Positions 562 through 58,597 of a DNA stretch of 64,000 bases are shown here, piece after piece. The DNA is from a virus (taxonomy: Duplodnaviria > Heunggongvirae > Uroviricota > Caudoviricetes): IMG/VR virus record IMGVR_UViG_3300010998_001290, one strand, 5' to 3'. A program made the translations under genes and the position numbers. How positions within the stretch are numbered: position 1 is the first letter of the stretch; each line of letters opens with the position of its first letter. Under the pieces are notes generated by a model. It had not been told where the DNA came from and did no database searches. It worked only from the letters and a program-made list of their open reading frames with translations.

Positions 562-605
562 ACTTAAGGTGTTGAAGTTCGTATTATCGAAAGGATGTGT
601 ATATA

Positions 606-1541
606 GTGATTGTCGTAAAAGGAAATGTTGAATACATAGGAGCAGATGATGTAAAGCTCGGCGTTATTACTTTCCCAGAATGGGCAGAATATATTAGAGA
701 TGGCTGTACATTTGCCTTGACTCCGGCAGAAATGCACGAGGTCAAGTTGATAGATTTTGGCTCTGTTAAGTATATCGGTTCAAGATTCTATAACAAAAAC
801 CATCTGATGATAGGCGGCATGGATGCGCTGGAGAGAATATCGTTCTGCGAGATATTTGACAATCTCGAACGAGTTAATGCACCTGAGCTTGTGGAAATCA
901 ACGAAAATCAGTTTAAGGCGTGCAAAATGCTTGAAAGTGTGTCTATCCCAAAGGCACAGGTGATAGGACCTTGCGCTTTTGCATTATGCCCCAAGCTTAA
1001 GAATGTGACCTTTGGTAATATCCAAAGAATAATGTCAAGCGCATTTGACTCTTGCAGGTCACTCAAAACGATTGAACTTCCGGAAGACAGCGAGGTTATT
1101 ATCCAAACGCAAGCATTCGCAAGAACGGGTCTTGAAAAGGTTGATCTACATTCCTGTTCTCTGAGATCATCAGCATTTTTTGCTTGCAGTGACTTAAAAG
1201 AAGTCAAAATAGATGATTTATCTCGTGTTCCCGGAAATTCCTTTTCCTATTGCAATAATCTCAGCAGTATAACCTTACTCACGGCACCGAGAGAGTATAA
1301 CCTGCCGTACACAGGCGAATGCTGCGAATATGAGCTGCGGATTAGCGAAGATGCGTATATACTTCCGAGTGAACCTATGAAAACGGTATGTTACAACGGC
1401 ACGACGGGAGAATATGTACAGACAATACAGTTGTATAATAAAAAGGTATATGTGATGAAGGATGGCAGGTATGTAATGTCCGAACTCGGAGAAGCCTTTG
1501 AAATAAGCTTTGAACAGCTTAAAACGGAGCTCGGAGAGTAA
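606..1541 (+). CDS. BspA-type leucine-rich-repeat (LRR_5-like) protein, paralogue 1 (alternative GTG start 597)
   Basis: Repeated 'AF..C..L..V.LP' units. Conserved N-terminus (IVVKGNVEYIGADDV) and C-terminus (YVMKDGRYV). AAAGG RBS 10 nt upstream of GTG 606. Confidence 0.7.
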   Translation: MIVVKGNVEYIGADDVKLGVITFPEWAEYIRDGCTFALTPAEMHEVKLIDFGSVKYIGSRFYNKNHLMIGGMDALERISFCEIFDNLERVNAPELVEINENQFKACKMLESVSIPKAQVIGPCAFALCPKLKNVTFGNIQRIMSSAFDSCRSLKTIELPEDSEVIIQTQAFARTGLEKVDLHSCSLRSSAFFACSDLKEVKIDDLSRVPGNSFSYCNNLSSITLLTAPREYNLPYTGECCEYELRISEDAYILPSEPMKTVCYNGTTGEYVQTIQLYNKKVYVMKDGRYVMSELGEAFEISFEQLKTELGE

Positions 1542-1583
1542 TCATTCTCTTGATACCAACGAAAAATCAACACTTAAGCGGAA

Positions 1584-1611
1584 GGGGCACTCGGTTGCCC
1601 CTTTTGTTTTT
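1584..1611 (+). terminator. intrinsic terminator
   Basis: GGGGCAC-tcgg-TTGCCCC hairpin plus TTTTGTTTTT. Confidence 0.7.
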
Positions 1612-1624
1612 ATGCCCGAAATAG

Positions 1625-1660
1625 CATACTAATAATAGTATCATATCAAGATGAATGGAG
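1625..1660 (+). promoter_or_regulatory. promoter cassette: CATACTA plus GATGAATGGAG box
   Basis: Sits 14 nt after the terminator at 1584-1611, spacing 18 nt. Confidence 0.6.
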
Positions 1661-1713
1661 GTTCAGAGTGGTATTTAGTCAAAATATGAATAATATAGAA
1701 AGGTGTGTATGAA

Positions 1714-2907
1714 ATGATAATAGAAAATGGCGTTGTTATAAAAATCACAGATGCTGATGTAGCGTTTGATATGCAGCGCGAAGGATATGGAGTACTGAAC
1801 CTTCCTGATGAAGCGACAGTACTTAAGGCTGACGTTACCGGTATCTCACCGTCAATGAGGTCAAACATAAAGGAACTCAGAGGGAAAAACATTCAGTATA
1901 TAGAGGCTTTTACAGATCATTGCGGAGAAAAGTCGTCTTTGACGCCCACTTTTCCCGCTCTGGAGCTTTTCGATATGCCGAGCCTTAAAGAGATCCCAAA
2001 GGAGGCTTTTGTTCAGCATAATATGCTTAAAAAAGTAGACCTCCCAAGCGTTAAATATGTCAGGGAGATGGCTTTTGAGGATAGCAGTATCGAAACTGTC
2101 ATATTGCCTGAAGCAGTGACAATATACGAGTCTGCTTTTAACTTTTCGGATATCAGCTCTATATATGCAGATAAGGTCGAAATCATTGAAGAGCGGGCAT
2201 TTGACGAATGTAAGAAATTGGATAAGCTTCATATGCTTAATGTTCGGCTGATAGGGAAATACGCATTTCAGAATTGCAACAAACTTAGGCTTATATATTT
2301 CGCCAAAGTGACGAACATAGACGATGCTGCTTTTATGGGGTGTAAATCTCTTGAAGAAGCGAATCTTCCCTCTGTACAGTCCATTGGTGAATACGCTTTT
2401 TCTAACTGTAAAAAGTTGAGCAGGGTGCATTTAGGCGATGACCTTAAAGCTATTCAGTACATGGCATTTTACTCCTGCGCAATAACAAATCTAAAAATCG
2501 GAAAAGCTGCCATTGTAGAAGCAGAAGCTTTTGAAAACATACAGAAGGACGTGGATGTTTATTGCGATGTTCCGGAGCAAATCGATGGAGCATTCGGATT
2601 TTTCCCCAACGGGAGAAAGGTCAAAAATGTATATTTCGCGAAGAAATATACCGAAAGGCAAAAGCTTCCTTTCTTGACAAGTAACGAATGCAGTTATCTT
2701 GTATTTCCGAATAAGAGAATGAGAGCCCTTTCAGTGAATACTTCACAGGTCTTTGAGGTGGAGCAGGAGATTTCCTGTATAGACGGAAAAACCTTGTGGA
2801 TACTGCGTAACGGCTGTTATGCTGTTAAGGAGACATACGGCAAGGTGATAAAGTATTGTTCAGGCAAAGAAGAGCTTGAAAAGGCTTTGAATGCTCCGCC
2901 GTTTTGA
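1714..2907 (+). CDS. BspA-type LRR protein, paralogue 2
   Basis: 'MIIENGVVIKITDADV' N-terminus, many 'AF..C..L' repeats, C-terminal 'LWILRNGCYAV'. RBS AAAGG. Confidence 0.7.
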   Translation: MIIENGVVIKITDADVAFDMQREGYGVLNLPDEATVLKADVTGISPSMRSNIKELRGKNIQYIEAFTDHCGEKSSLTPTFPALELFDMPSLKEIPKEAFVQHNMLKKVDLPSVKYVREMAFEDSSIETVILPEAVTIYESAFNFSDISSIYADKVEIIEERAFDECKKLDKLHMLNVRLIGKYAFQNCNKLRLIYFAKVTNIDDAAFMGCKSLEEANLPSVQSIGEYAFSNCKKLSRVHLGDDLKAIQYMAFYSCAITNLKIGKAAIVEAEAFENIQKDVDVYCDVPEQIDGAFGFFPNGRKVKNVYFAKKYTERQKLPFLTSNECSYLVFPNKRMRALSVNTSQVFEVEQEISCIDGKTLWILRNGCYAVKETYGKVIKYCSGKEELEKALNAPPF

Positions 2908-2918
2908 TGGAGGTTAAT

Positions 2919-3833
2919 ATGATAATATACAATGGTTTAGTAAAAAGGATAGAAGCTCATGATTTCGTGGACAAAGAGATACGATTTCCGGACGAAGCTC
3001 GTCGTATATGCGAAGATGTTCAGATAAGCTTTGAAGTCCAGCTTTTATTTGAAACTGTAGAATACATTGATTTCAACAATATTGAGGGCATTGACAGGAA
3101 AATTGTTCTCAATAAGGTAAAGAAGATCGATGCACCTCAGCTTTATATTGTGTGGGAAGACCAATTCTCGTACTGTGAGAAGCTTATGGAAATCAATATT
3201 CCGAGAGTAGAAACGATCAAAAGGAGAGGGTTCTTTAACTGTCGCGCTTTAGAGAGCATCACGCTGTCTAATATAGCGAGGATTGATGAAGAAGCTTTCT
3301 ATTGCTGTGTTGCTCTTACAAAAGCAGAGCTTGGAGACAACATTAAGTTTGTTGGCACAAATGCTTTCAGAAATACGAATTTATCGTATATAGATCTGAA
3401 ACAGGCTGAAGAAGTAAGAACCGGTGCGTTTAAGAACTGTACTCATCTATTCCAAATCAGGGTAGCAAACCTGAATGTGCTGAAGAGTAAGGCTAATGTT
3501 CTTGAAGGATGTGAAGACCTCAGATGTATAACCTTAACTCAGGGCTCTGTCTCAGCTAAGAAGTATCCTTATACCAAAATAGGCTGTGAATACACCATTG
3601 AGAGCATAAAGGGAAACGAGCACATCAGGCTGCTATCGGGCAACAGTGCTGCCGACGTGTATCACATAAGCCAAAAGATAAGCGGGGAAAGCTTTGATGA
3701 TGAGGAATTTATGAGCGATATTTATGTTACGGACGGCGGTGATATGGTGGCTGTTAAGAAAAGTAAGACAACTGGATTTAAATATGTTTGTCGAGGAGAC
3801 ACTGCAAAAATCAGGCAGTTTTTAGAAGCGTAG
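2919..3833 (+). CDS. BspA-type LRR protein, paralogue 3
   Basis: GGAGG RBS 5 nt upstream. 'MIIYNGLVKRIEAHDF' N-terminus and LRR repeats. Confidence 0.7.
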   Translation: MIIYNGLVKRIEAHDFVDKEIRFPDEARRICEDVQISFEVQLLFETVEYIDFNNIEGIDRKIVLNKVKKIDAPQLYIVWEDQFSYCEKLMEINIPRVETIKRRGFFNCRALESITLSNIARIDEEAFYCCVALTKAELGDNIKFVGTNAFRNTNLSYIDLKQAEEVRTGAFKNCTHLFQIRVANLNVLKSKANVLEGCEDLRCITLTQGSVSAKKYPYTKIGCEYTIESIKGNEHIRLLSGNSAADVYHISQKISGESFDDEEFMSDIYVTDGGDMVAVKKSKTTGFKYVCRGDTAKIRQFLEA

Positions 3834-3842
3834 GAGGAATAT

Positions 3843-4784
3843 ATGGTCATAGATAACGGATGTGTAATCGATATAGATAAGACTGATATTATCGAAGGAG
3901 TCCTTACATTCCCAGCTGGAGCAAAGATGCTTGGGTCAAAATCTCAAATATTAGAAGTTTGCAACGAACGGGGCGAATTAACGCGATATTTGGACGGGAA
4001 AAAGTATATTTGTCGGAATTTGCAGGAAGAAAATACTGTAAAAAGATTTACCCCGTTTTTACCTGAGATAAAAGAAATAAATTTTTCTGGCATAGAGAAT
4101 ATAGCGCTCCCAATAGCGCGAATTGCTCCACGGATTCAAACAGTGCATGGAGAAAACATATTATCTATATGCGATTGTTGTTTTGAAGATTGTGAAAAAT
4201 TAAAGGCTATAGATCTTTCAAATGCAAATACGATAGGGAAATACGCTTTTGCTGGTGCAGGGCTTGAAATAGTACTTTTTGGAACATCGATAAAAAATAT
4301 AGACTTTGGTGCATTTTCTTATACAATGCTTGAATCCGTAAATATTCAAAACGCTAAAATAGCTACTCATGCATTTCGGGGCTGCGATTGCCTTCAAACG
4401 GTTTACATGAATTCAACAGATTTATGCGAAACTTGGTCTTTTTATCAATGTGAGGCAATAAATGAAATATATGTAAAAGAATACAATGTTTCGAATATAC
4501 CATATATAGATTCGGGGTATGAGTACAGCATATGTGAATGTAACGGGAATGGAACAATGCATAACATCATATGTGGAGACGATGAGGTCAGTGAAGAGAT
4601 AGTGTATGAATATGTTCAAAAAATGAAATGTCAGGGGGTTGACGGCAACTTATACATTTTGAAGGATGGAAGAATTATTCATATTTACCAGTATGAGACT
4701 TATGACGGAATTGAAAATAAGGTAAGTCCTGAGTTCAGCAGCATAGATGAGTTTAAAGATTATATGGATATGGAGGGAAGTTAA
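3843..4784 (+). CDS. BspA-type LRR protein, paralogue 4
   Basis: GGAGG RBS. 'MVIDNGCVIDIDKTDI' N-terminus, LRR repeats, C-terminal 'LYILKDGRIIHIY'. Confidence 0.7.
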   Translation: MVIDNGCVIDIDKTDIIEGVLTFPAGAKMLGSKSQILEVCNERGELTRYLDGKKYICRNLQEENTVKRFTPFLPEIKEINFSGIENIALPIARIAPRIQTVHGENILSICDCCFEDCEKLKAIDLSNANTIGKYAFAGAGLEIVLFGTSIKNIDFGAFSYTMLESVNIQNAKIATHAFRGCDCLQTVYMNSTDLCETWSFYQCEAINEIYVKEYNVSNIPYIDSGYEYSICECNGNGTMHNIICGDDEVSEEIVYEYVQKMKCQGVDGNLYILKDGRIIHIYQYETYDGIENKVSPEFSSIDEFKDYMDMEGS

Positions 4785-5731
4785 TGATTCTTTCAGGAAA
4801 AGTTTTGTACGGAATAAACGAAGATGATGTAAATGTGAAGGAAAAGACCCTTCGTATTGGCAACGGCGTTAAAGAGATGTCGGATAGGTGTAATGTCAAT
4901 ATAAGAAAAGAAATCAGGGAACAGATAAAAACCATTGACTTTAATGAACTTGTAGCAGTAGATCATTTGAGTGGATGTACTGTTCACGATGTTTTCCCGA
5001 ACGTAGAAGTCGTACTGATGCCTAAAGCAAAGACGGTATATGCTAATATGTTTGAGAAGTGTCAAAAGCTCAAGAAAGTAGACATGAAAAACGTAGAAAG
5101 AGTACACGAAGCGGCGTTTAAGGGCTGTACCAAACTACAACAAGTTCTTCTTCCTAACGTCATATTTATTGGGAAGGAAGCTTTTGCCGGTTGCGAACGA
5201 CTTGAAACTATCTCCTTAAGGAAAGAGAGAAAGGTAATCCAATACTTTGCGTTCAGCGAAACAGCTGTTGAGACTATCGATCTTGGAGATGCAAAAGTTG
5301 ATCTTGGCGCGTTTAAATGGTGTGGATATTTGCAATCGTTAAGTATAGACACTTTACGGGATTTCGACAGAAGAGCATTAGCAGAGTGTTATGCCTTCAA
5401 AGAGATTTTGGTCAGGGACAAGGAATATGCCTATATAGAAAAGGCACCATGTATAGCAAGAGGTAAGACGTATTCCCTTGTGTATGACGATGAAGAGTCT
5501 CCATTTGCGCCAGATGAAAAACATATGATATGTGGAGTCGAGAAATATGATCATGATCGCGTTTATCCCGTGTTTGAGTACATACAAGCAATAGATACAA
5601 AGTCTGTTAATTCCGGTACATTTTCCAGATTGTACGTTCTGAAAAACGGGAAATATATTGCAGTGTTCACAAACGGAAAGATAAGTCTTGTAAGCGATTC
5701 CGTATCATCGCTCGTTGAAGCAAAAGACTAA
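4784..5731 (+). CDS. BspA-type LRR protein, paralogue 5
   Basis: TAATG overlap with the previous gene. GGAGGG RBS. LRR repeats and C-terminal 'LYVLKNGKYIAVF'. Confidence 0.7.
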   Translation: MILSGKVLYGINEDDVNVKEKTLRIGNGVKEMSDRCNVNIRKEIREQIKTIDFNELVAVDHLSGCTVHDVFPNVEVVLMPKAKTVYANMFEKCQKLKKVDMKNVERVHEAAFKGCTKLQQVLLPNVIFIGKEAFAGCERLETISLRKERKVIQYFAFSETAVETIDLGDAKVDLGAFKWCGYLQSLSIDTLRDFDRRALAECYAFKEILVRDKEYAYIEKAPCIARGKTYSLVYDDEESPFAPDEKHMICGVEKYDHDRVYPVFEYIQAIDTKSVNSGTFSRLYVLKNGKYIAVFTNGKISLVSDSVSSLVEAKD

Positions 5732-7004: not shown

Positions 7005-8753
7005 ATGATGATTAAGGAACTGTTAAAGAAGTATTCGTACGATGATGTATGCGCATCTATAATAAGGTATGTGTACCGAAATATGGAATGTGCGCCTAAT
7101 GCAAGCTCTGACTTTATGGCGGAACTCAAGAAGGGCAAGGATGAGATCGTAGAGTACTTCGAGGAGGAAAAGGTAGACCAGAGCATCCAGAATGTTCTGT
7201 CTATGTTTGAAGAGGTCGCCAGCGAGAGAAGCAGGGGTGTCGTATACACACCTTTCAAGGTTTCCAAGCTCATGTTTGATAAGATAGAGGACTATAATAC
7301 CGGCATCAAGTTTATGGATCCCTCCTGCGGCAGCGGCGCAATACTCGTTAATCTGGTGGATTATATCCATAACAAGTTTATGATTTCGCCTATCGACATC
7401 ATCAACAACAGCATTTACGGCATGGACAATGACTATTTCAGCACTAAGCATTGCAAGTTTCTTCTTGAACTGCTTTGCCTCAAGCTCGGATATCACGCTG
7501 ATGGGCTCAAGATGCACATAGTCAATAACAACAGTATGCTCGTTGATTGGGATACCCTCGGCGTAAGAAAGTTTGACTACATCTTCGGCAATCCGCCTTA
7601 TATCGCTTTAAGGGATATGGATAAGGAAGAGCGCGAGCAGTATGAGAAGCAGTATGAAGTCGCTAAGGGAACATACAATATGGCGCATCTGTTCCTTGAA
7701 AAGGCTATAAAATATGTTAAGCCTAACGGCACTATATCATTCCTTGTCATCAATAATCTTTTCACACACATCTCATCGAAACCGGTAAGAGAACTCATAA
7801 TGCGCACAGGCTATCTTCACGAGGTTATTGAGTTCAATAAGATAAGGTTGTTTGAGAATGCCGAGGTGCTTACCACGCTTATCACATTAAAGGCTGCGTC
7901 GCATACCAAATTCGGCTATGCGAGACCTGAAGCTCTTAATAAGATAGTTCTTGTACAGCTTCCGCTGTCGGAACTTAAGGCTGAAGAATGGGTGTTTGCG
8001 AACGCAAAACAGAAGGAATACCTTGAGCATATCAGGTCTTTTGATACTAAGCTTAAGCCCTATATGAGCGGTTGTATAGCAACTCTTGCCGATAAGGTGT
8101 TCATTCTTGACGATGACGGAAAGACAAGAAGCAACCCCAAGAGACAGAGAGCCATAAAAATCGAGGATGGTATAATCAAGGAAATGTATCGTCCTCGCAA
8201 TATGGAAGGTGAAAAGGCTAAGAAGCTGAAGGTACTGTTTCCGTATGACGAAGACTTTAACACGCTGAGTCTCGATGATATTAAAGAAAGGTTCCCTAAG
8301 GCTTATCAGTATCTTAAAAACAACGAGGAAAAGCTGAAGCAGAGAAGCTGGCAGGATCAGTGGTACGCGTTCGGCAGAAGACAGGGGCTTGCAGTGGAGC
8401 ATAAGGCTGTTCTATTCGGCTGCTATTCCAGAAAGCCGAGATTTATCGTTCCTGATGACGATACGGCACTTCTTCTTAGCGGCGCGTACATAAGCAGCAA
8501 CATACCGGTGAAGCCTGATGTGCTTGCGGTTATCCTGAATTCCGATGTAATGGCGTGGTATATTAAGAAGGTATCGTTCCCCATTTACGGAGACTATTAC
8601 TACTACGGCAAGAAGGTCGTGGGCGACTTCTCGATACCTCCGCTTACCGAGGAAGAGGAAAAGGCGCTGCTTTCTATGACGAAGAGCGAGGTTAACGAAT
8701 TCCTTATCAAGAAGTACGATATAGAGGGTATCGAACTCGAAGAAACGGCATAA
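7005..8753 (+). CDS. N6-adenine DNA methyltransferase (gamma-class, Eco57I/TaqI-like), orphan
   Basis: Motif I '[13 protein letters not shown]' and motif IV 'IFGNPPY'. AGGAGG RBS. 582 aa with a C-terminal target-recognition-like region and no nuclease domain. Confidence 0.85.
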
Positions 8754-13701: not shown

Positions 13702-13708
13702 CATACTA
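13702..13708 (+). promoter_or_regulatory. extended -10-like TGtCATACTA promoter element
   Basis: 'gcaactgctcTGtCATACTAat' after the terminator at 13661-13690. Confidence 0.55.
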
Positions 13709-17461: not shown

Positions 17462-17707
17462 ATGCTTTCGGAAAGACTTCATGAATTGAGAAAGATTAAA
17501 AACCTTACACAGAATGAAGCTGCTGAAGCGATGGGCATTGTATCAAGAACATATGGCGGTTACGAGCGCGGAGAAAGGGAGCCTGATATCAAAACAATGA
17601 TAAAAATGGCTGATTATTTCAACTGCACCCTTGACTACCTTGTAGGAAGATCATTTAAGCCCAAATATGTTGTAAAGGTAAAGGTCAGAAAGTCAAAAAA
17701 GAGGTGA
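17462..17707 (+). CDS. XRE-family helix-turn-helix transcriptional regulator
   Basis: 'LRKIKNLTQNEAAEAMGIVSRTYGGYERGEREPDIKTMIKMADYFNCTLDYLVGR' is the canonical Cro/C1-type HTH. Confidence 0.85.
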   Translation: MLSERLHELRKIKNLTQNEAAEAMGIVSRTYGGYERGEREPDIKTMIKMADYFNCTLDYLVGRSFKPKYVVKVKVRKSKKR

Positions 17708-26651: not shown

Positions 26652-26686
26652 AAAGGCTTGCTTCGGCAAGCCTTTATTATTTTCGG
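26652..26686 (+). terminator. intrinsic terminator
   Basis: AAGGCTTGC-ttcg-GCAAGCCTT plus a T-rich tail. Confidence 0.7.
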
Positions 26687-26690
26687 CAAT

Positions 26691-26697
26691 CATACTA
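26691..26697 (+). promoter_or_regulatory. CATACTAATAGT promoter element upstream of the ABC transporter genes
   Basis: After the terminator at 26652-26686. Confidence 0.55.
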
Positions 26698-26765
26698 ATA
26701 GTAGCCAAATTCAGCGATTGCGGGATTTCGGAGGCTATTACAGATATAGAAAGAGAGACTATATT

Positions 26766-27491
26766 ATGCTTAATGTTAAGGATATATCGAAGAGTTTCGG
26801 CACAAATAAAGTGCTTAACAGGGTCTCATTGGATGTCAATGAAGGCGAAATAGTAGGGATACTCGGTGAGAACGGAGCAGGAAAGTCAACTTTGATGCGT
26901 ATCTTAAGCACGATGCTTAGCTTTGATAGCGGTGAAGCAAGTGTAAACGGACACTATATAGGGAAAGATGACATAGAAGTAAGGAAGTCGATAGGAGTAC
27001 TGTTCGGAAGCGAAGTAGGACTTTACGGAAATCTTACTGCGAGAGAGAATATCGACTATTTTGGTAGGCTTAATGGGATGAAATCGACTAAAATACAGAT
27101 CGATAGACTGGCGGAGGTACTTGGTTTCGGAGATTATCTTGACAAACAGGCGCGGCATCTGTCAAGGGGTATGAAACAGAAGGTATCCTTTGCAAGGGCT
27201 GTAGTACACGATCCACCGGTCATACTGCTTGATGAGCCTGAAACAGGACTTGATTTTGTAGCTGCTAAGACCGTATTTGATTTTATGCTTTCCTGTAAAA
27301 AGCAGGGTAAAGCTGTGTTCTTCAGCAGTCATTCTATGGAGAATATAAGATATTGCAGTGACCGTATCATTCTCCTTAGGAATGGCATAATCCAATACAG
27401 CGGAGATATGCATCAGATAAACGAAAATAAATCCGACAGCGAAATAAGGACAATGTTCTATAATATGATACTCGGCGAGGAGGTATACTGA
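26766..27491 (+). CDS. ABC transporter ATP-binding protein
   Basis: Walker A 'GENGAGKST', ABC signature 'LSRGMKQKVSFARA', Walker B 'ILLDEPETGLD'. Confidence 0.85.
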   Translation: MLNVKDISKSFGTNKVLNRVSLDVNEGEIVGILGENGAGKSTLMRILSTMLSFDSGEASVNGHYIGKDDIEVRKSIGVLFGSEVGLYGNLTARENIDYFGRLNGMKSTKIQIDRLAEVLGFGDYLDKQARHLSRGMKQKVSFARAVVHDPPVILLDEPETGLDFVAAKTVFDFMLSCKKQGKAVFFSSHSMENIRYCSDRIILLRNGIIQYSGDMHQINENKSDSEIRTMFYNMILGEEVY

Positions 27492-28633
27492 TGCTTGCTG
27501 TATATTTAAAAGAACTCAAAGAGATGGTAAGGGACAGGAAAACGCTCTTCATTACGGTAGCTACACCGCTTATCGTAATAATGTTCATGATATCTATCAT
27601 CTCATTTTCAACAAATGAGCTGACTACAAGTATTGTAAACAACATTACCATAGGTGTAGAGGATACAAACAGCGACTTTGCTCAATTGCTTGCGGCAGCG
27701 GACGGCATAAAGGTCGTAGAAAGCAAGGAACCTCTTAAGGATATGAGAGCCGGATCCATCGGAGCATATCTTGAAGCTCCGGATAATATGACAGAGCTTA
27801 TGCGGTCGGACGAGGAGATACCGGTCGAGATAACATATAACAACGGGTTATTGGAATCTCAGGCAGCAGTATCAGTCTTAAGTGAGTTTATCAACACACT
27901 AAACGATACTTATCTCACAAATAAGCTTGATGAAAATGGGCTGCCTCATACATATGCGGCGAAGTATTCTACCGAACTCAACAATGTAGAAGTAAAGACA
28001 AATGGCTCTATAATGCTTACTATGTTCCCTATGTTGCTAATCACATATTGTCTGTTCGGCGTATCAGCAATAGCCAATGACCTTGGAACAGGGGAGAAGG
28101 AGAGAGGAACGCTTGAGTCTCTCCTTGCAACAGGCGTAAAGAGAAACTCTATAATGGCAGGCAAATACCTTGCTATATGTACATCGGGCATCTTATGTGC
28201 TGCCAGCTCACTGTTGGGTTTTGTTTTCTCGTCCGGATTAAATCCCATGTTATCGCTTGATATATCGTTTACGGATGGTTTGATAATACTGTTTCTGGCG
28301 CTTTTGGTAGCAAGTGCGTTTGCTGGATTATGCTTTGCATTAAGTATTTTCGCCAAGACCAACAGGGAGGCGCAAATGTACAGCACAATAATCACATCTA
28401 TATCTATTCTTCCTTCGATAACTATGTCTTCGGTTGATGTAGCAAGGCTTAGCGCTGCGGACTTCATCGCACCTTTATATAATGTGGTATATTGCCTTAA
28501 GGAAATATTACAACATTCAATAAACCCTGTACATATCCTGATTACCGCAATCTCAATGGCAGTTTGCGTGGGGTTGTGTTTCTTCTTAACAAAGGTAATG
28601 TTCAACAACGAGAGGTTTTTGTTCAGAAAATAA
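27491..28633 (+). CDS. ABC-2 type transporter permease
   Basis: ATGA-coupled to the ATPase. N-terminal TM, large extracytoplasmic loop, then five more TM segments, which is the ABC-2/NatB-like topology. Confidence 0.75.
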   Translation: MLAVYLKELKEMVRDRKTLFITVATPLIVIMFMISIISFSTNELTTSIVNNITIGVEDTNSDFAQLLAAADGIKVVESKEPLKDMRAGSIGAYLEAPDNMTELMRSDEEIPVEITYNNGLLESQAAVSVLSEFINTLNDTYLTNKLDENGLPHTYAAKYSTELNNVEVKTNGSIMLTMFPMLLITYCLFGVSAIANDLGTGEKERGTLESLLATGVKRNSIMAGKYLAICTSGILCAASSLLGFVFSSGLNPMLSLDISFTDGLIILFLALLVASAFAGLCFALSIFAKTNREAQMYSTIITSISILPSITMSSVDVARLSAADFIAPLYNVVYCLKEILQHSINPVHILITAISMAVCVGLCFFLTKVMFNNERFLFRK

Positions 28634-28770: not shown

Positions 28771-30462
28771 ATGATGAAATTACCGGATAATTACTATCCA
28801 ATACCGGAAGAGCTGGCTTTTAAAATGGCTCAGAAGGCATTTAAGAACTACAAACCCGGCGATACTGCTTATGTCCTTGAGCCGTCCGCCGGAACAGGAG
28901 ACATGATTAAGGGTATTGAGAAGTTCTCAGACAGGCAGCATCCATATTGTTGCCGATATGACATTGACTGCATCGAGATCAACCCTGAGCTTGCCGCTAT
29001 ACTTAAGGAAAGATACTGTGAGTATGGCGAAGAACGGGTGAGAGTTGTGTATGACGATTTTCTTACATTTAAGACAGATAAGGTCTATACACACATACTG
29101 ATGAACCCGCCATTTGATGAAGGAGAAAAACATCTGCTGAAAGCTCTTGACATCTTGAAGAACGGCGGGGTCGTTGTGTGTCTCTTGAATGCTGAAACAT
29201 TAAGAAATCCGTACACAAACACAAGAAAAGAGTTGACAGATCGTCTTCTTGAGCTCGGCGCTGATATCGAGTATATCGAGCACGCCTTTTCTGAAGCGGA
29301 GCGTCCGACTGATGTTGAGGTAGCAATGATTACAGTAACGATAGAGTCAAAGCCTTATACAAGCTTCTTCTTTGATGATATGAAGAACTATAGGGATGAA
29401 GACGAGCCTATAGACGAGAATGTTACGGACATAATAGAAGGCTCCGGAACTATCAGAGCAGCAATTGTTTCCTACCGCAACGAGTTAATTCTCGGAAAGC
29501 GCTTCATAAGAGAGTATTATGGACTTCGGAAGTACATACCTGTAAATTTCTGTTCTTCCGATGCAGAAGAGTGGGAGAAAGAAATGTCAAGTGCGCCTAT
29601 CATCGATATCAAAATTGATGGCAATGAGGCGATAAGAAGTACTTATCCTGAAATGCTCAACGCCTTTATAAAACTCCTTAGAAATAAGTATTGGAAAGAA
29701 TTCTTCAAGAACAAGGAGCTTACTGACAAGTTTACCTCAAATCTCATTAAGTCCTTCTCATCTCAGGTGGAACGGCTCGAAAATTACGATTTTAATGAGC
29801 ATAACATAGCCGAGATACGCAATCAAATGATCAATCAACTTACCAAAGGTGTTGAAGATGCGGTCATAGGGATATTCGACAAGCTCTCAGCCCAGCATTC
29901 GTGGTTTCCGGAATGCAGCAAGAATATTCATTATTACAATGGATGGGCATCCAATAAAGCACACAAGATAAACGATAAGGTAGTGCTGCCTACGGAGAGC
30001 AGATACGGCGGGTCGAGTTGGATCTATACAGATAGCTGGCGCAATGAAGCCTTTGATGTGTACGAAGCGTACGGAATGTTGTCAAATATCGAAAAGGTTT
30101 GCTCTTATTTCTGCGTAGAAGGAAAATCTTACCTTGACTTAAGTACACAGCTTTCGATTGCATCTAAGAGAATGATCACGAAGAACATTGAGTGCCGCTA
30201 CTTTGATATCACAATCTATAAGAAAGGAACTGTACATATCAAGTTCACCTCAAAAGAGGCTCTTGAAGCACTCAATATTTACGGCTCAAAGATGAAAGGT
30301 TGGCTTCCTCCGAGTTATGGAAAGAAGCACTACAAGGATATGAATGAAGATGAAAGAATAGTAATTGACGCTTTTCAGGGAGAAGAAGCCTATGAAAAGG
30401 AGCTGGCTGACCCTAAGGGCGTTATCGGAGCAGGAAACGGTGCAATAGCATTGTTATCATAA
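28771..30462 (+). CDS. N6-adenine (amino-) DNA methyltransferase, second orphan MTase, with a C-terminal extension of unknown function
   Basis: Motif I 'YVLEPSAGTGDM' and motif IV 'ILMNPPFDEGEKH'. AAAGGAA RBS. Confidence 0.75.
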   Translation: MMKLPDNYYPIPEELAFKMAQKAFKNYKPGDTAYVLEPSAGTGDMIKGIEKFSDRQHPYCCRYDIDCIEINPELAAILKERYCEYGEERVRVVYDDFLTFKTDKVYTHILMNPPFDEGEKHLLKALDILKNGGVVVCLLNAETLRNPYTNTRKELTDRLLELGADIEYIEHAFSEAERPTDVEVAMITVTIESKPYTSFFFDDMKNYRDEDEPIDENVTDIIEGSGTIRAAIVSYRNELILGKRFIREYYGLRKYIPVNFCSSDAEEWEKEMSSAPIIDIKIDGNEAIRSTYPEMLNAFIKLLRNKYWKEFFKNKELTDKFTSNLIKSFSSQVERLENYDFNEHNIAEIRNQMINQLTKGVEDAVIGIFDKLSAQHSWFPECSKNIHYYNGWASNKAHKINDKVVLPTESRYGGSSWIYTDSWRNEAFDVYEAYGMLSNIEKVCSYFCVEGKSYLDLSTQLSIASKRMITKNIECRYFDITIYKKGTVHIKFTSKEALEALNIYGSKMKGWLPPSYGKKHYKDMNEDERIVIDAFQGEEAYEKELADPKGVIGAGNGAIALLS

Positions 30463-31220: not shown

Positions 31221-32807
31221 ATGCCAGATTTTGAAGTAAATCCCGCAATCGTAATCGGTGTAATCGCGGTTATAGTGGTAGCAATCATTATTTCGCTTGG
31301 TTACATCAAGGTCCCACCCGACAAGGCTTATATCATCACAGGTATAAAGCGTCGTAGGGTAATCGGAAAAGCAACGATAAGGATCCCATTCCTTGAGCGT
31401 CTCGACAAACTCAACCTTGCCGCTATGCAGGTCGATGTTGTCACAAGGACACCGGTTCCTACCGCCGACTACATCAACATAAGGGTAGACTCCGTAGTCA
31501 ATATCAAGATACCAACTGAAGATATTGTACTGGAACACCTCAATGAAAACGGCGAAGCAGTAACAGTGACCTATCCGGCTGATAAATGTCTTGAGAAGGC
31601 TCAGCAGAACTTCCTTAACAGAGACCAGCAGTACATCGTAAAGATAGCATCTGAGGTGCTTGAAGGTAATGTCCGCGAGATTATCGGACAGATGAAGCTC
31701 GAAGAAATGGTATCCAACCGTCAGAGATTCGCGGAGCTTGTAAGGCAGAATGCTGCGCCTGACCTTGCTGAACTCGGTTTGTCGATAGTGTCGTTCAATG
31801 TCCAGAACTTCTCTGATGACAACAATATTATCACCGATATGGGTATCGACAATACTATGCAGATCAAGAAGAGAGCGGCTATATCCAAGGCACAGGCTGA
31901 AAGAGATATATCTATAGCTCAGTCCGAAGCAAACAGGGAGTCGAACGACGCTCAGGTCAACTCCGAAACAGCTATCGCAGAACGCCAGAACGAACTGGCT
32001 ATCAAACAGGCAGAGCTTAAGAAACTCTCTGACATCAAGAAGGCGGAATCCGATGCAGCTTATAAGATTCAGGAAGAAGAGCAGAGAAAGACCATAGAAA
32101 TCACAGCTGCGAACGCTAACCTTGCAAAGCAGGAGAAGGAAGTCGAGATAAAAGCTAAGGAAGCTCAGGTAAGAGAACAGGCGCTTGAGGCTGAGGTCAA
32201 GAAGACGGCTGAAGCTGAAAAGTATGCGGCACAGCAGAGAGCGGACGCAGAACTGTACACAACCGCTAAGAAGGCAGAGGCTGACCTTATAAGAACCCAG
32301 AAGGCAGCGGAAGCAAAGAAAGCGGAAGCAGAAGCGGCAAGGTTTGCGGCTGAACAGGAAGCTGAAGGTATCAAAGCAAAGGGTCTCGCGGATGCAGAGG
32401 CTATCAAGGCGGCGGCATTGGCTGAGGCTGAAGGTCTCGACAGAAAAGCAGAGGCTATGCTTAAGATGCAGCAGGCGGCGGTACTTCAGATGTACTTTGA
32501 TAAGCTGCCCGATATTGCAAAGGCTGTGGCTGAACCTCTTTCTAAGACAGATAAGATCATTATGTACGGCGAAGGCAACTCTTCTAAGCTGGTAGGAGAC
32601 ATCACAAAGTCAATAAGCCAGATAAACGAAGGTATGCTCGAAGGCACAGGTATAAGCTTACAGAGTCTGCTGAACGCTTTCGTATCGGGTAAGGCGGCAG
32701 GTACGGCTGTAGCCAATGCTGTACAGAGCAGCGGCGAGACGAAGAGTGCATCTGTGGCAGACGAAGCTGATACAAGTGGCGTATACGAAGCTACGGAAGA
32801 AGAATAA
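31221..32807 (+). CDS. flotillin-like SPFH/band-7 domain membrane protein
   Basis: N-terminal TM helix, SPFH core 'YIITGIKRRRVIGKATIRIPFLERLDKLNLAAMQVDV', long Ala/Glu coiled coil typical of flotillins (FloT/YqiK). AAAGGAGGG RBS. Confidence 0.8.
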   Translation: MPDFEVNPAIVIGVIAVIVVAIIISLGYIKVPPDKAYIITGIKRRRVIGKATIRIPFLERLDKLNLAAMQVDVVTRTPVPTADYINIRVDSVVNIKIPTEDIVLEHLNENGEAVTVTYPADKCLEKAQQNFLNRDQQYIVKIASEVLEGNVREIIGQMKLEEMVSNRQRFAELVRQNAAPDLAELGLSIVSFNVQNFSDDNNIITDMGIDNTMQIKKRAAISKAQAERDISIAQSEANRESNDAQVNSETAIAERQNELAIKQAELKKLSDIKKAESDAAYKIQEEEQRKTIEITAANANLAKQEKEVEIKAKEAQVREQALEAEVKKTAEAEKYAAQQRADAELYTTAKKAEADLIRTQKAAEAKKAEAEAARFAAEQEAEGIKAKGLADAEAIKAAALAEAEGLDRKAEAMLKMQQAAVLQMYFDKLPDIAKAVAEPLSKTDKIIMYGEGNSSKLVGDITKSISQINEGMLEGTGISLQSLLNAFVSGKAAGTAVANAVQSSGETKSASVADEADTSGVYEATEEE

Positions 32808-54463: not shown

Positions 54464-54520
54464 CAGCATAATGCAAAGGACGTCCTGCGTGGGCGTCTTT
54501 TGTTTTTCTGCGCTAAATTC

Positions 54521-54556
54521 CATACTAATAATAAGGTATATTATTGACGAACGGAG
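54521..54556 (+). promoter_or_regulatory. CATACTA plus GACGAACGGAG cassette
   Basis: After the terminator at 54477-54508. Confidence 0.6.
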
Positions 54557-55289: not shown

Positions 55290-55586
55290 ATGTACACAAT
55301 TGAGGTCAAAGGCAAGTATGGTAGTGTAGACTACCTGTCTTGTACGGATGAAGAGAAAAGTACAGTCAATATGGATGATCTCAGGAAAGTTCATAAAGAA
55401 TGTGAAGGCGATGTCTACACTCTTCGGGCGTTTATGGAAGAAATAGACAACGGGATCGTCAGTTCATATGACGGAGTCGGCTACTTCCATGATGGAAAGC
55501 ATCGAACTAACGTGAAGGTCTGGAACAATGACCTGACATGGAATGATGTCAAGGATTATCCTTATGTATGCTGGTATAACAAGTGA
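55290..55586 (+). CDS. hypothetical protein
   Basis: Coupled to the previous gene. GGAGG RBS. Confidence 0.5.
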   Translation: MYTIEVKGKYGSVDYLSCTDEEKSTVNMDDLRKVHKECEGDVYTLRAFMEEIDNGIVSSYDGVGYFHDGKHRTNVKVWNNDLTWNDVKDYPYVCWYNK

Positions 55587-55600
55587 GAAAGGAAGAGAAA

Positions 55601-55927
55601 ATGGATAACAGATGTTTTTATTACGCACCGGACAGTGAATATTCAGGGAAGGATACTTACCGTATAGAGTGCCGCATAGTAATCTATCGTCAGAAATTCG
55701 GCAAACATCCTGATTTTCTGAAAGATTACGAGGGTAACAAACACGGCGAAGGGTACAACACTAAATTTTTCTTCCTTATTGAAGACGGCATACCGGATGA
55801 AGACACCGCTAAGACAAAGGTCGATAAGTATAATAAAGACTATGCAGACATTATTTCGAAGTGCGAGAACAGCGGTGAATGGGATGATTTCCCGTTCAAG
55901 TCCAGTATGATCACCTACTATAAATAA
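55601..55927 (+). CDS. hypothetical protein
   Basis: AAAGGAAGAG RBS before ATG 55601. Confidence 0.5.
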   Translation: MDNRCFYYAPDSEYSGKDTYRIECRIVIYRQKFGKHPDFLKDYEGNKHGEGYNTKFFFLIEDGIPDEDTAKTKVDKYNKDYADIISKCENSGEWDDFPFKSSMITYYK

Positions 55928-55939
55928 GGAGGCGTTCCA

Positions 55940-56362
55940 GTGAGTATATCTATAAGTTGCAAGAAGACAGGACGCGATATAACCGTGGACACAGGTGGTT
56001 TTTTACGCTTAAGAAGGGATATTGCGCTTTACTGCTACAAAGAGTGGGGAGAGCATTACACTGAATTAATGTCATTTCCTTTGCTTAAAGGTAAGGAGTG
56101 GTATAAAGCCTTTGACCGCAAAACGCTGGAACTGATAAACAGACGTAAGGTAAGCAAAAAATTTGTATATTTTTGTTTGCAGCCTGATGCAGGCGGTTCA
56201 ATTGCTCCGGGAACTTGTAAAATGATATATGACAGAATAAAGGATTATGACAACGATGCTATATACGGGTATCATGGTAAACCTAATCCTTGCAAGCTGT
56301 GCGATTTCAAGAAAATATTGAAAGAATGCATAGACACGAAATCAAGGCTGGAGTGGTGGTAA
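55940..56362 (+). CDS. hypothetical protein (GTG start)
   Basis: GGAGG RBS 7 nt before GTG 55940. Confidence 0.5.
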   Translation: MSISISCKKTGRDITVDTGGFLRLRRDIALYCYKEWGEHYTELMSFPLLKGKEWYKAFDRKTLELINRRKVSKKFVYFCLQPDAGGSIAPGTCKMIYDRIKDYDNDAIYGYHGKPNPCKLCDFKKILKECIDTKSRLEWW

Positions 56363-56363
56363 T

Positions 56364-56427
56364 ATTTAAACTACCTTTAAATGGGCTTTAAATGGTCTTT
56401 AAATAGCATTAAAATCATTTTAAAACG
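56364..56427 (+). repeat. array of five TTTAAA-core direct repeats, three as tandem CTTTAAATRG units
   Basis: 'atatTTAAActacCTTTAAAtgggCTTTAAAtggtCTTTAAAtagc...TTTAAAacg' in the 78-nt gap before 56440. Confidence 0.6.
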
Positions 56428-56439
56428 AGGAGGATAAAT

Positions 56440-56634
56440 ATGAGAGTAAAGTATGTACACGCATCCGACCCTAACAAGGTGAAGGTTTATGATATAGAGG
56501 AAGCATACAAGAAATGCCCTTTCTTGGATCCTTTAAACCGTCCGACGTTGGATGACTGGACGAGAAGGGAGCTTGATTATTTCGCTTCCGATAAGAAGAA
56601 AGGTATAATACTCACATACGAGATATGCGAATAA
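56440..56634 (+). CDS. hypothetical small protein downstream of a CTTTAAAT direct-repeat array
   Basis: GAGGAGG RBS. Confidence 0.5.
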   Translation: MRVKYVHASDPNKVKVYDIEEAYKKCPFLDPLNRPTLDDWTRRELDYFASDKKKGIILTYEICE

Positions 56635-56655
56635 TAACTGAAAGGAAAAGATGAT

Positions 56656-57069
56656 ATGAGTAACATTAGTCTCGAAGAGAAGAAAAGGGAAGCTGTAAGC
56701 AGGATGAAATCTATGAAGATGTTCCCTGAGGTTATAAAGCAGTTTTCCGAAGATGGGCTCGTAATGAAGACCGAAGGCTACTTAGGCGGCTGCTACTATC
56801 TTAACGATGAGCAGAAGAAGAGGGTCTCGGACTTCGAGAACAAGCATAATGCCCTTGTGTACCACGTCATTATGGCGCATACAACTGACGGGATAATGGA
56901 AAGCTACGTCTATGTAAGTGACAACAAGAAAGATTGGGCATCTGACCGTGATGATATTAACAACCGGCGGTTGTTTACTTATACTTATGTGTACGACGAC
57001 CCTATCTGCTCTGAATTTGGCACTATCGGATACAAGCTTTCACCCGGCGCGGGGCTTCAGAGATTGTAA
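56656..57069 (+). CDS. hypothetical protein
   Basis: AAAGGAAAAG RBS. Confidence 0.55.
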   Translation: MSNISLEEKKREAVSRMKSMKMFPEVIKQFSEDGLVMKTEGYLGGCYYLNDEQKKRVSDFENKHNALVYHVIMAHTTDGIMESYVYVSDNKKDWASDRDDINNRRLFTYTYVYDDPICSEFGTIGYKLSPGAGLQRL

Positions 57070-57110
57070 ATTACCCAACAATAACTATATAATGAAAAAG
57101 GAGTAAAAAT

Positions 57111-57800
57111 ATGATTTACAGAGAGACTATCGTAGTGGATAAGAATACCGCAGATTTCATCAACAACGCTCTTAACATCGAGCCTGATTGCGAGAGCAAC
57201 TGCTTTGGCGAAGACGAGAAGATCTCGTACACAGCTACTTTCAGCAACGGATTTCAGGCTGATATCGAGTGCATCGGCGTACAGTACGACGAGGGCGGCT
57301 GCAATACCGCTTGGACACAGGCTGTTCTTTTCAATCCGGATGGCGGTGAGGTCAATTGTTCAGCTCCCGACAGCTCTTTCTTTGATGAGTGGTGGCTTAC
57401 GGATAGTGATGGGAATGAGTACTATATCAATGTCGTAACCGACAACGATAACGACGGAGATACCGACGACGGCGATGATGATGCTGAGTTCATCACGAAG
57501 AACCGTAACCGTGCCGAAAGAAGACGCGCAAGACGGAACAGTATAGCTCGCAGGTCGAGAGAAACTGTTGAAAAGTGTCGTGTCGGCAACCCTGAGATAC
57601 TTGAGGATCTCGGAGAACGCAGAGTAGGACAGCTGGCGAAGGGTTCTTGGATCCACAGCAGCGTAGCTTATGATTGGGACTTCTTCGGCGTAGGTCGTCT
57701 TCTCAGATATAAGCCTTCTACTATGCGGAGACTTGACAAGGCTCGTTATGCTATGTCTGACTATTCTGCATATGCCGAGGATGACAAGGAGGCAGTATAA
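57111..57800 (+). CDS. hypothetical protein with an acidic 'DNDNDGDTDDGDDD' stretch followed by an Arg-rich stretch
   Basis: AAAGGAG RBS. Confidence 0.55.
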   Translation: MIYRETIVVDKNTADFINNALNIEPDCESNCFGEDEKISYTATFSNGFQADIECIGVQYDEGGCNTAWTQAVLFNPDGGEVNCSAPDSSFFDEWWLTDSDGNEYYINVVTDNDNDGDTDDGDDDAEFITKNRNRAERRRARRNSIARRSRETVEKCRVGNPEILEDLGERRVGQLAKGSWIHSSVAYDWDFFGVGRLLRYKPSTMRRLDKARYAMSDYSAYAEDDKEAV

Positions 57801-58294
57801 TGGGAATGACTCTTGCACAGCTTAAGAGAGATGCCAATAGTGGCTCTCTCGTACTTGAGATGATCGAGCGCTACGGCGATACCGGCGAAGCAATTCCTGA
57901 AAGGCTCAGAGGAAAGAGAAAGGTACTTAAGGCTAACAGCGTTGGGCTTATTCTCTTGAATGCTGATGGCAAGGAAAGCACGTTGGATATTGACAGCGCC
58001 AAGCTCATAGACTACACTGATGACACGCTTGTCGTATACAATCCCGGCTTAAGAGAACCTACCGATGAAGAAAAGAGGGTTCTTGATGGGATACACAGCA
58101 TCTATCAGAAGTACGCTGATACATACAACGGCGGTTATTGGCAGGGAAAGGACTTCGGAATGAAGAGCTCTTGCCCTTGGATGCTTGGATACGACAAGAT
58201 AAGAGGTAAGCGGTACGAATCTCACAGCGGAATGGTAAGAGACAATTCCGTAAGAGGCGAACAGTGCCTTAAGTATAAGGTGTATCGCGCTTAA
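57800..58294 (+). CDS. hypothetical protein
   Basis: TAATG coupling. Confidence 0.55.
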   Translation: MGMTLAQLKRDANSGSLVLEMIERYGDTGEAIPERLRGKRKVLKANSVGLILLNADGKESTLDIDSAKLIDYTDDTLVVYNPGLREPTDEEKRVLDGIHSIYQKYADTYNGGYWQGKDFGMKSSCPWMLGYDKIRGKRYESHSGMVRDNSVRGEQCLKYKVYRA

Positions 58295-58305
58295 CGAACA
58301 ATTAA

Positions 58306-58337
58306 ACATCAAGAAGAGAGTGTCCGCATGGCACTCT
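58306..58337 (+). terminator. intrinsic terminator
   Basis: AGAGTG-tccgcatgg-CACTCT plus TTTTCTTTTTT. Confidence 0.65.
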
Positions 58338-58338
58338 T

Positions 58339-58389
58339 TTCTTTTTTCTGTGTACGAGAAGTAAAATCGTATTCAATTTCCGTCCGTGC
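58339..58389 (+). promoter_or_regulatory. TGTGTACGAGAAGTAAAATCGT (diverged upstream box), 22 nt, CATACTA
   Basis: After the terminator at 58306-58337. Confidence 0.5.
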
Positions 58390-58597
58390 AATCATACTAT
58401 CTATAGAAACGTAAGATAATTACTTGCATCGGGCTGGCTCGACAGCCTTGTAGTGACGTAGTGGCAGCTATACGCTGTTAACTCTCACTAAGGTAAATCC
58501 CGCAATAGTATTCCTGCGGGCGCTTATAGTAGTGCGAGACCGCACACCCGGAGTTATGATAAGGCGACATCGAATGTGAGATGAAATAGGAGGTTCT

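Follow-up and report, generated by a model that had tools for sequence, protein, structure and literature searches.

A helically phased array of TTTAAA boxes as a candidate accessory control element within an operon of a large phage-like element

What does a row of short A/T-rich boxes do when it lies between two genes of the same operon, with one box per helical turn? The question arises in IMGVR_UViG_3300010998_001290, an IMG/VR record assigned to the Caudoviricetes, of which we analyzed a stretch of 64,000 nucleotides (nt), referred to here as the window. A gap of 77 nt at 56363-56439, between two small co-oriented genes, holds six TTTAAA-type boxes. A preliminary description of this DNA, made from its letters alone, had seen in them an iteron-like array to which a repressor or an initiator protein might bind, or an origin-like element. 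Our analysis revealed that the boxes and their spacing are retained in a second lineage while the bases between them are not, and that other close relatives lack the array. Its best reading is as an accessory control element, of a familiar kind, and not as a replication origin.

The array spans 56365-56424 (no strand assigned) and nearly fills the gap. The boxes lie at 56365-70, 56376-81, 56387-92, 56398-403, 56408-13 and 56419-24; the fifth is ATTAAA, one mismatch away from TTTAAA, and the other five are perfect. The sequence bears out the earlier account of phased TTTAAA-core repeats that almost fill a short intergenic gap, with two corrections: the ATTAAA box at 56408 had gone uncounted, and the gap had been given as 78 nt. 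Reading through it, the TAA stop of the upstream gene (56360-62) is followed by TA, then by the six boxes separated by the G+C-containing spacers CTACC, TGGGC, TGGTC, TAGC and ATCAT (4-5 nt each), and finally by ACGAGGAGGATAAAT, which leads to the ATG at 56440. The start-to-start spacing of the boxes is 11/11/11/10/11 nt, with a mean of about 10.8 base pairs (bp). The longer words CTTTAAATGG, CTTTAAATGG and CTTTAAATAG begin at 56375, 56386 and 56397, and Tandem Repeats Finder reports the locus with a period of 11, 2.7 copies and a score of 53, among the highest of its 12 rows for the window. Each TTTAAA is its own reverse complement, and neighboring boxes pair into 17-bp units of the form TTTAAA-N5-TTTAAA. 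As 11 leaves a remainder of 2 on division by 3, three successive boxes (56365-56403) put TAA in all three frames of both strands, and the array is therefore an all-frame translational stop.

No second array of this kind occurs in the 64 kilobases (kb) of the window. When we scanned for four boxes placed 11 nt apart, the array scored 24 out of 24, while the next best place reached 18 (the 19s from scan positions overlapping the array were set aside); in 50 shuffles the phased score rose to 19 at most. Five of the 22 TTTAAA hexamers of the window fall in the gap. Outside it, the hexamer is not unusual, with 17 copies observed against 14.1 expected under a Markov model.

Next, we compared the array with its counterpart in the relatives L128, L129 and L148, which are perfectly syntenic with the window over about 20 kb at about 85-92% DNA identity. 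In the same gap they carry TTTAAA at five matching positions (boxes 1-5), and the 11/11/11/10 spacing is preserved. All five boxes of L128 are perfect, and its spacers (ACCCC, TAGGG, CAGCC and TCAA) are unrelated to one another. With the arrays of the window and L128 aligned in register, 29 of 30 box positions are identical, as against 8 of 19 spacer positions (Fisher p=2.5e-5). Four-fold degenerate sites, taken as a neutral measure, are identical at a fraction of 0.82 across seven flanking genes and of 0.59-0.79 in the two genes just upstream, and the identity of the boxes exceeds both (p=0.02 to 3e-6). Moreover, the phase is free of insertions and deletions though over half of the spacer bases have changed. 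Because the boxes are kept and the spacers are not, this comparison indicates that purifying selection acts on the boxes and their phase but not on the spacer sequence, nor hence on the repeat unit as such. Since the boxes of L128 are perfect while its spacers share nothing, the array is not a fresh product of slippage. An identical copy of the array is also present on the short contig L127, which comes from another sample and differs in the gene two positions upstream.

The array lies inside a transcription unit bounded by a terminator and CATACTA motif at 54473-54527 on one side and by a terminator at 58311-58343 on the other. The nearest upstream copy of the promoter-like CATACTA motif (54521-54527, + strand) follows a terminator at 54473-54503 and is taken as the start of the unit; it has counterparts in L128 (8582) and L148 (8074). 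A terminator-like hairpin (58311-58343, + strand) ends the unit, and the next CATACTA stands at 58393. Within the unit, the gene before the array (55940-56362, + strand) encodes a protein of 140 amino acids (aa) with no function assigned and ends 2 nt short of the first box. No gene of the operon has diverged more between the lineages (76-79% aa identity). The gene after the array (56440-56634, + strand) encodes a 64-aa protein, also without an assigned function, and is the first gene that the array could control. Its Shine-Dalgarno sequence, GGAGG at 56429-56433 (+ strand, read from the sequence within GAGGAGGA, 56427-34), sits 4 nt past the last box and 6 nt ahead of the ATG. Motif and terminator scans agreed with the earlier statement that the gap holds neither a CATACTA motif nor a terminator. 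It is among the few gaps of more than 50 nt in the window without a terminator-plus-CATACTA cassette, and its signal thus differs in kind from that of the others.

How, then, might the array work? We tentatively favor, as a possible explanation, a helically phased site on duplex DNA at which a protein assembles along one face, tuning transcription into the distal genes. With one box per helical turn, all boxes would face the same side of the helix, and the flexible TpA steps at their centers, alternating with G+C-containing spacers, would make the DNA easy to bend in one direction. The boxes would be occupied cooperatively by a small DNA-binding protein, either as monomers, one per turn, in the manner of P2 Cox, 186 Apl and lambda Xis, or as dimers, each over a 17-bp TTTAAA-N5-TTTAAA unit. 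The self-complementarity of the box allows for dimers, and we consider six monomers and three dimers on one face equally plausible. Once occupied, the array might act as a roadblock that throttles read-through transcription, or it might keep a weak internal promoter repressed; either way, it would determine at what level or time the four distal genes (56440-58294) are expressed. We place the effect on transcription because of where the array lies, in mid-operon, with a stop codon 2 nt upstream and a Shine-Dalgarno sequence 4 nt downstream. Two traits speak for such a site, as they belong to duplex DNA and not to an mRNA signal: the box is palindromic, and the period of the array comes close to the helical repeat of 10.5 bp.

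Several observations weigh against this proposal. The conservation test is a single comparison between the two array-bearing lineages in the data. Whatever function the array has is dispensable: L150, L151 and L152 keep both flanking genes around a 38-nt gap without an array (in L150, ATATCGGCGACAAATAAGCGAAAGGAAAGGTATCAAAA), and L149, which has a different upstream gene, lacks the array as well. Given these close relatives, we regard the array as an accessory feature. As for the binder, the ten proteins of the operon gave no Pfam or PHROG match, and among the open reading frames (ORFs) scanned against Pfam, all from the 64-kb window of an element of about 302 kb, there was no Xis/Cox/MerR-like, HTH_17 or RHH family; the sole recognizable DNA-binding domain among them belongs to an XRE/HTH_3 protein at 17462. 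Structure predictions were uninformative on this point. The model of the 140-aa protein was unusable (predicted local distance difference test, pLDDT, of 43; shallow alignment), and the AlphaFold model of the 64-aa protein, also from a shallow alignment, was modest (pLDDT 67.5) and matched no fold in the PDB (best E 3.3). Finally, the hexamer is palindromic and its flanking bases are conserved neither between boxes nor between lineages, so that no orientation can be assigned to a box.

More distant relatives, fetched from viral and human-gut metagenome contigs, do not carry the array. At none of the loci with homologs of the 140-aa gene at 35-39% aa identity (6 viral, 18 metagenomic) is there a gap or an array, and homologs of the 137-aa gene at 48-55% have different neighbors and no array. 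The preliminary description had proposed checking whether the periodicity is conserved in homologs; it is kept in L128, L129 and L148, and is missing together with the array from L149, L150-152 and these distant loci. The array-less gap of L150 carries, in the array's place, the last 17 nt of an unrelated gene that is intact in L149. The DNA of the 140-aa gene is 87% identical between L150-152 and L128, and 80% identical between either and the window. In the gene tree, where the window is the outgroup of L128 and L150, a single loss in the L150 lineage would be the simplest history, in a region that is visibly mosaic. Indeed, the stretch at 55583-56440 is a mosaic hot spot across the window and L127, L128, L148, L149, L150 and L151, and the gene upstream of the 140-aa ORF occurs in versions of 114, 108, 82 and 127 aa.

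The gene after the array varies too. In some relatives (L128:10509-10772, L150:3001-3264) the 64-aa protein is extended to 87 aa by an in-frame insertion of 23 codons, which partly repeats the neighboring FLDLSN(H/R)PTLD segment. This insertion is independent of the array: L128 has both, L148 the array only and L150 the insertion only. An identical 64-aa protein is encoded on a Joint Genome Institute (JGI) metagenome contig of about 302 kb, Ga0139362_1000266. The 5.2-kb region around the array showed no DNA similarity to annotated phage records.

The favored architecture has well-described counterparts among phages. Cox of coliphage P2 is a winged-helix, filament-forming protein that acts as repressor of Pc, as excision factor and as activator of P4 PLL. 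Its boxes, TTAAA(G/C)NC(A/C), occur in at least 6 copies placed 10-11 nt apart from start to start; binding bends the DNA, which has been proposed to wrap around a Cox filament (PMC3936717). Like the Cox boxes of P2 and satellite P4, our array consists of short A/T-rich boxes that contain TTAAA, advances in steps of 10-11 nt and covers about 60-70 bp, and by analogy it would act through cooperative loading with bending or wrapping of the DNA. Unlike them, it conserves the palindromic TTTAAA alone and not the 3' half of the cox-box, and its setting is an operon within a large element that appears to be lytic, as opposed to a lysis-lysogeny switch. The operators of Apl from coliphage 186 measure 6 bp and come in sets of 5-7, spaced by one helix turn; binding requires at least 3 adjacent boxes, a weak specificity for the single site being offset by strong cooperativity between neighbors (PMC7498355). 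The tandem six-bp boxes described here, one helix turn apart and at least three in a row, resemble these operators. The Apl boxes, however, are asymmetric direct repeats located between divergent early promoters and at attP, whereas ours are symmetric and lie between co-oriented genes. Apl sites are grouped with those of recombination directionality factors, such as X1-X1.5-X2 of lambda Xis and the sites of Gifsy-1 Xis and Pukovnik Xis, and no such factor was found in the window.

A further case is that of the lytic mycobacteriophage D29, whose Xis/MerR-like protein Gp36 represses genes downstream of direct repeats (PMC12266134). There, a direct-repeat binding mode serves pure gene regulation in lytic growth, as we suggest for the array, although the D29 repeats are GC-rich (AGGCGGCG) and 13-19 nt apart, unlike the A/T boxes at 11 nt seen here. 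Our array thus appears to be built like an operator of the Cox/Apl type. We do not file it as one, because the window yielded no Xis/Cox/MerR-like protein, no integrase in the Pfam scans and no detected att site, because the boxes have no defined orientation, and because the locus is not a lysis-lysogeny switch.

The main alternative to a protein-assembly site is that the array acts as RNA, either as an A/U-rich leader that offers the ribosome a standby or S1-type enhancer site, or as the target of a translational regulator of the 64-aa gene. Lying in an operon, the array is very probably transcribed, it ends just 4 nt short of the Shine-Dalgarno sequence, and three successive boxes are enough to bring TAA into each of the three frames. 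Similar arrays elsewhere (described below) also tend in this direction: among the matches listed, the 56 distinct TTTAAA/11-nt arrays include 21 that extend as far as a gene start, and a Shine-Dalgarno-like triplet is found in the last spacer of 7 of those 21, compared with 3 of 43 other spacers. We nevertheless consider an RNA-level role unlikely. A single-stranded A/U enhancer needs neither an 11-nt phase nor a palindrome, yet both are conserved; the folding energy of the gap against shuffles (z = -0.04 and 0.12 in the two lineages) makes it neither specially open nor specially structured for its composition; Rfam returned no match to the array region at E<=1; and in close relatives the same gene follows the 38-nt gap that has no array. 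Chance amplification of an 11-nt unit by replication slippage at the junction of two mosaic modules would produce a neutral or nearly neutral minisatellite, carried along with no function, and several observations fit this reading. Units 2-4 of the window are nearly identical (CTTTAAATGGG, CTTTAAATGGT, CTTTAAATAGC), as after a recent duplication, the array is present or absent among close relatives where upstream genes are exchanged, it is missing from all more distant relatives fetched, and of the gap-free 60-nt bins of the operon, the one that holds it is the least conserved (37/60, the others scoring 41-57/60). What makes this origin quite doubtful in our view is the pattern of change, as decay should strike boxes and spacers alike and instead has left 29/30 of the former and 8/19 of the latter. 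In addition, L128 combines five perfect boxes with spacers that have no sequence in common, and the two lineages agree in the number of boxes and in the 11/11/11/10 spacing, even though their spacers differ by more than local neutral divergence.

An ordinary internal promoter of the sigma-70/sigma-A type, or several that overlap, in which box n serves as the -35 and box n+2 as the -10 element of a separate transcript for the distal genes, seems improbable to us. Alternate boxes are 22-23 bp apart, which is the distance from -35 to -10. Boxes 3 and 5 form a weak sigma-70-like hexamer pair, TTTAAA-17-TAAAAT at 56387-56415 (+ strand; score 9/12), a candidate internal promoter and nothing firmer, from which a start near 56422 would leave an 18-nt leader with its Shine-Dalgarno sequence. 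The promoter-like matches of the region, however, are not in excess (12, versus 8.9 +/- 3.2 in shuffles), the counterpart of the pair in L128 and L148 is TTTAAA-17-TAAAAG, whose -10 hexamer is without the essential final T, the motif at the 30 evident promoter-like sites of the element is quite unlike it (CATACTA preceded by a T-rich tract), and five to six phased boxes exceed what a promoter needs. Far more remote is a role as an iteron origin, a packaging (pac) site or a plasmid-like centromere of the parC/tubC type, which we hold to be highly improbable. Iterons of known origins (lambda ori, P1 oriR and the iteron plasmids) measure about 17-22 bp with most positions conserved, and adjoin an AT-rich unwinding element, usually within or beside the initiator gene. 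The array shares with them a set of phased direct repeats in a non-coding stretch, proposed to organize a nucleoprotein complex, and the element, of about 302 kb, encodes replication proteins including a primase and a RecJ-like nuclease. Its unit, though, is 11 bp long with 6 bp conserved, which is short for an initiator iteron. We found no AT-rich unwinding region beside it (G+C returns to 0.33-0.45 on either side), and the nearest DnaA-box-like sites, with one mismatch, are isolated, their count in the window being 19 against 16 +/- 4 by chance. The cumulative GC skew rises steadily through the site without a turn. Pfam and PHROG revealed no initiator, no ParA/ParM/TubZ-type NTPase and no terminase in the operon, nor did inspection show a Walker A motif in the 229-aa protein encoded downstream. 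As the array is missing from close relatives in which both flanking genes are retained, it is not an essential unique cis site. Type II and III centromeres (ParR-parC, TubR-tubC) are also tandem one-turn repeats upstream of an operon, each repeat binding one dimer; a protein superhelix forms with the DNA wrapped around it, and the promoter of the operon is repressed by the complex as well (PMC5016525). Here, by contrast, no such NTPase and no recognizable centromere-binding protein follow the array, and the array is dispensable. Of the earlier proposals, we favor that of a protein-binding array, given boxes and phase that are kept between diverged spacers in an architecture known from phage operators; those of an initiator site and an iteron- or origin-like element are not supported.

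Four further candidates were considered and rejected. Intrinsic curvature, as of phased A-tracts, is not supported: in a wedge model, the array reaches 17.7 degrees at most, the 89th percentile of the window and not far above its background, where peaks attain 32-35 degrees. Phased T3A3 tracts are known to be straight, in agreement with this unremarkable value. A cluster arising from restriction-site avoidance or methylation was dismissed because TTTAAA is not depleted outside the array, by the counts given above (17 versus 14.1 expected). We discarded a mini-ORF of 18 codons, running from the ATG at 56381 to the TAA at 56435-37 and ending 2 nt before the ATG at 56440, since the array of L128 contains no ATG. 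Similarly, AbrB-like TGGNA motifs and a boxA-like CUCUUUAA in the spacers of the window are not conserved in L128.

We also searched viral contigs for exact matches to four TTTAAA boxes 11 nt apart and found them in at least 120 viral stretches. Among the matches listed there are 56 distinct arrays with three non-identical spacers, on contigs of 31-57% G+C, and 21 of these arrays abut a gene start. Examples from IMG/VR contigs (L007-L126) are L012:10327-10365, L091:1748-1786, L050:10315-10353 and L028:2075-2113. Homologous arrays, such as those of L012 and L091, retain the boxes while the spacers change. Many of the array-bearing contigs are, on our own reading of their gene products, presumably Mu-like, and several arrays precede genes that we take to be Mu-like. 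Such arrays cannot lie inside an ORF, because they bring stops in every frame of both strands; three boxes 11 nt apart carry TAA in all six frames, and we accordingly discarded their constant intergenic location as evidence. One 39-kb contig, IMGVR_UViG_2571042010_000004, holds two copies of a composite in which a hairpin, TTTCAGGC(A/T)GCCTGAAA, is followed by an array and a start codon. By our reading, one composite stands before a presumed MuB-like gene and the other before a presumed tail-like gene. Two other array-bearing loci showed no DNA similarity to annotated phage records.

Literature searches for a described TTTAAA/11-bp element returned nothing specific. That TTTAAA boxes every 11 bp with free spacers form a widespread and so far undescribed class of intergenic control element in phages, with the present array as one member, is a speculative idea, which we think rather unlikely to hold. 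If it did, all such arrays would share one reader, an architectural protein that may be the host's, or else a physical property that is recognized at each of them; this property would be the one-sided bendability conferred by phased TpA steps. Taken alone, the locus is a modest regulatory detail; a more general finding could come from the wider recurrence of the TTTAAA/11-bp pattern in unrelated phages. Should a protein indeed assemble on the array of the window, the array would be an internal control point in the long transcription program, otherwise punctuated by promoters and terminators, of a gut phage-like element of roughly 300 kb whose genes at this site have no assigned function, and it could serve as a handle for finding a new regulator. 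The array-bearing and array-less natural variants, in near-identical contexts, are a ready-made experiment.

The rest of the window is a strand-uniform stretch of this large element, with nearly all ORFs on the + strand. CATACTA occurs 30 times on the + strand and 5 times on the - strand. Most copies (for example those at 13702, 14268, 18814, 43716, 47644, 48233, 54521 and 59209) follow a hairpin-plus-T-run terminator and a TTTTTGTTTTT-like tract, and often GACGAATGGAG comes about 25-35 nt later, just ahead of a start codon. A subset (5830, 16021, 25737, 31167, 33636 and 58393) has TGTGTACGAAAGACA upstream instead. Judged by this arrangement, CATACTA looks like the element's own promoter, joined to a conserved leader and ribosome-binding cassette.

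Genes recognizable by Pfam include a DnaG-type primase, a RecJ-like nuclease and two DNA methyltransferases, the latter at 7005-8753 and 28771-30462. Five consecutive paralogous genes (309-400 aa) fill 597-5731, each with BspA-type leucine-rich repeats (PF13306). An ABC-transporter ATPase and ABC-2 permease pair and an SPFH/flotillin-like protein, encoded at 26658-28633 and 31221-32807, are unusual cargo for a phage-like element, and among the small ORFs there are ProQ C-terminal-like, RNase H, YopX, Lar and LPD28 domains. Several palindromes are strongly avoided in the window: CTGCAG (0 copies, 11.4 expected), CTCGAG (0, 9.6 expected), AACGTT (0, 5.9 expected) and CCATGG (0, 3.8 expected) are missing, and words with CTAG or GGCC are likewise absent. 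This avoidance of 6-bp palindromes suggests selection against host restriction sites. Some 8 kb downstream of their arrays, L128 (18469-19917) and L148 (17963-19411) have a TnpB/Cas12f-like gene (PF07282); it lies immediately past the sequence aligned to the end of the window.

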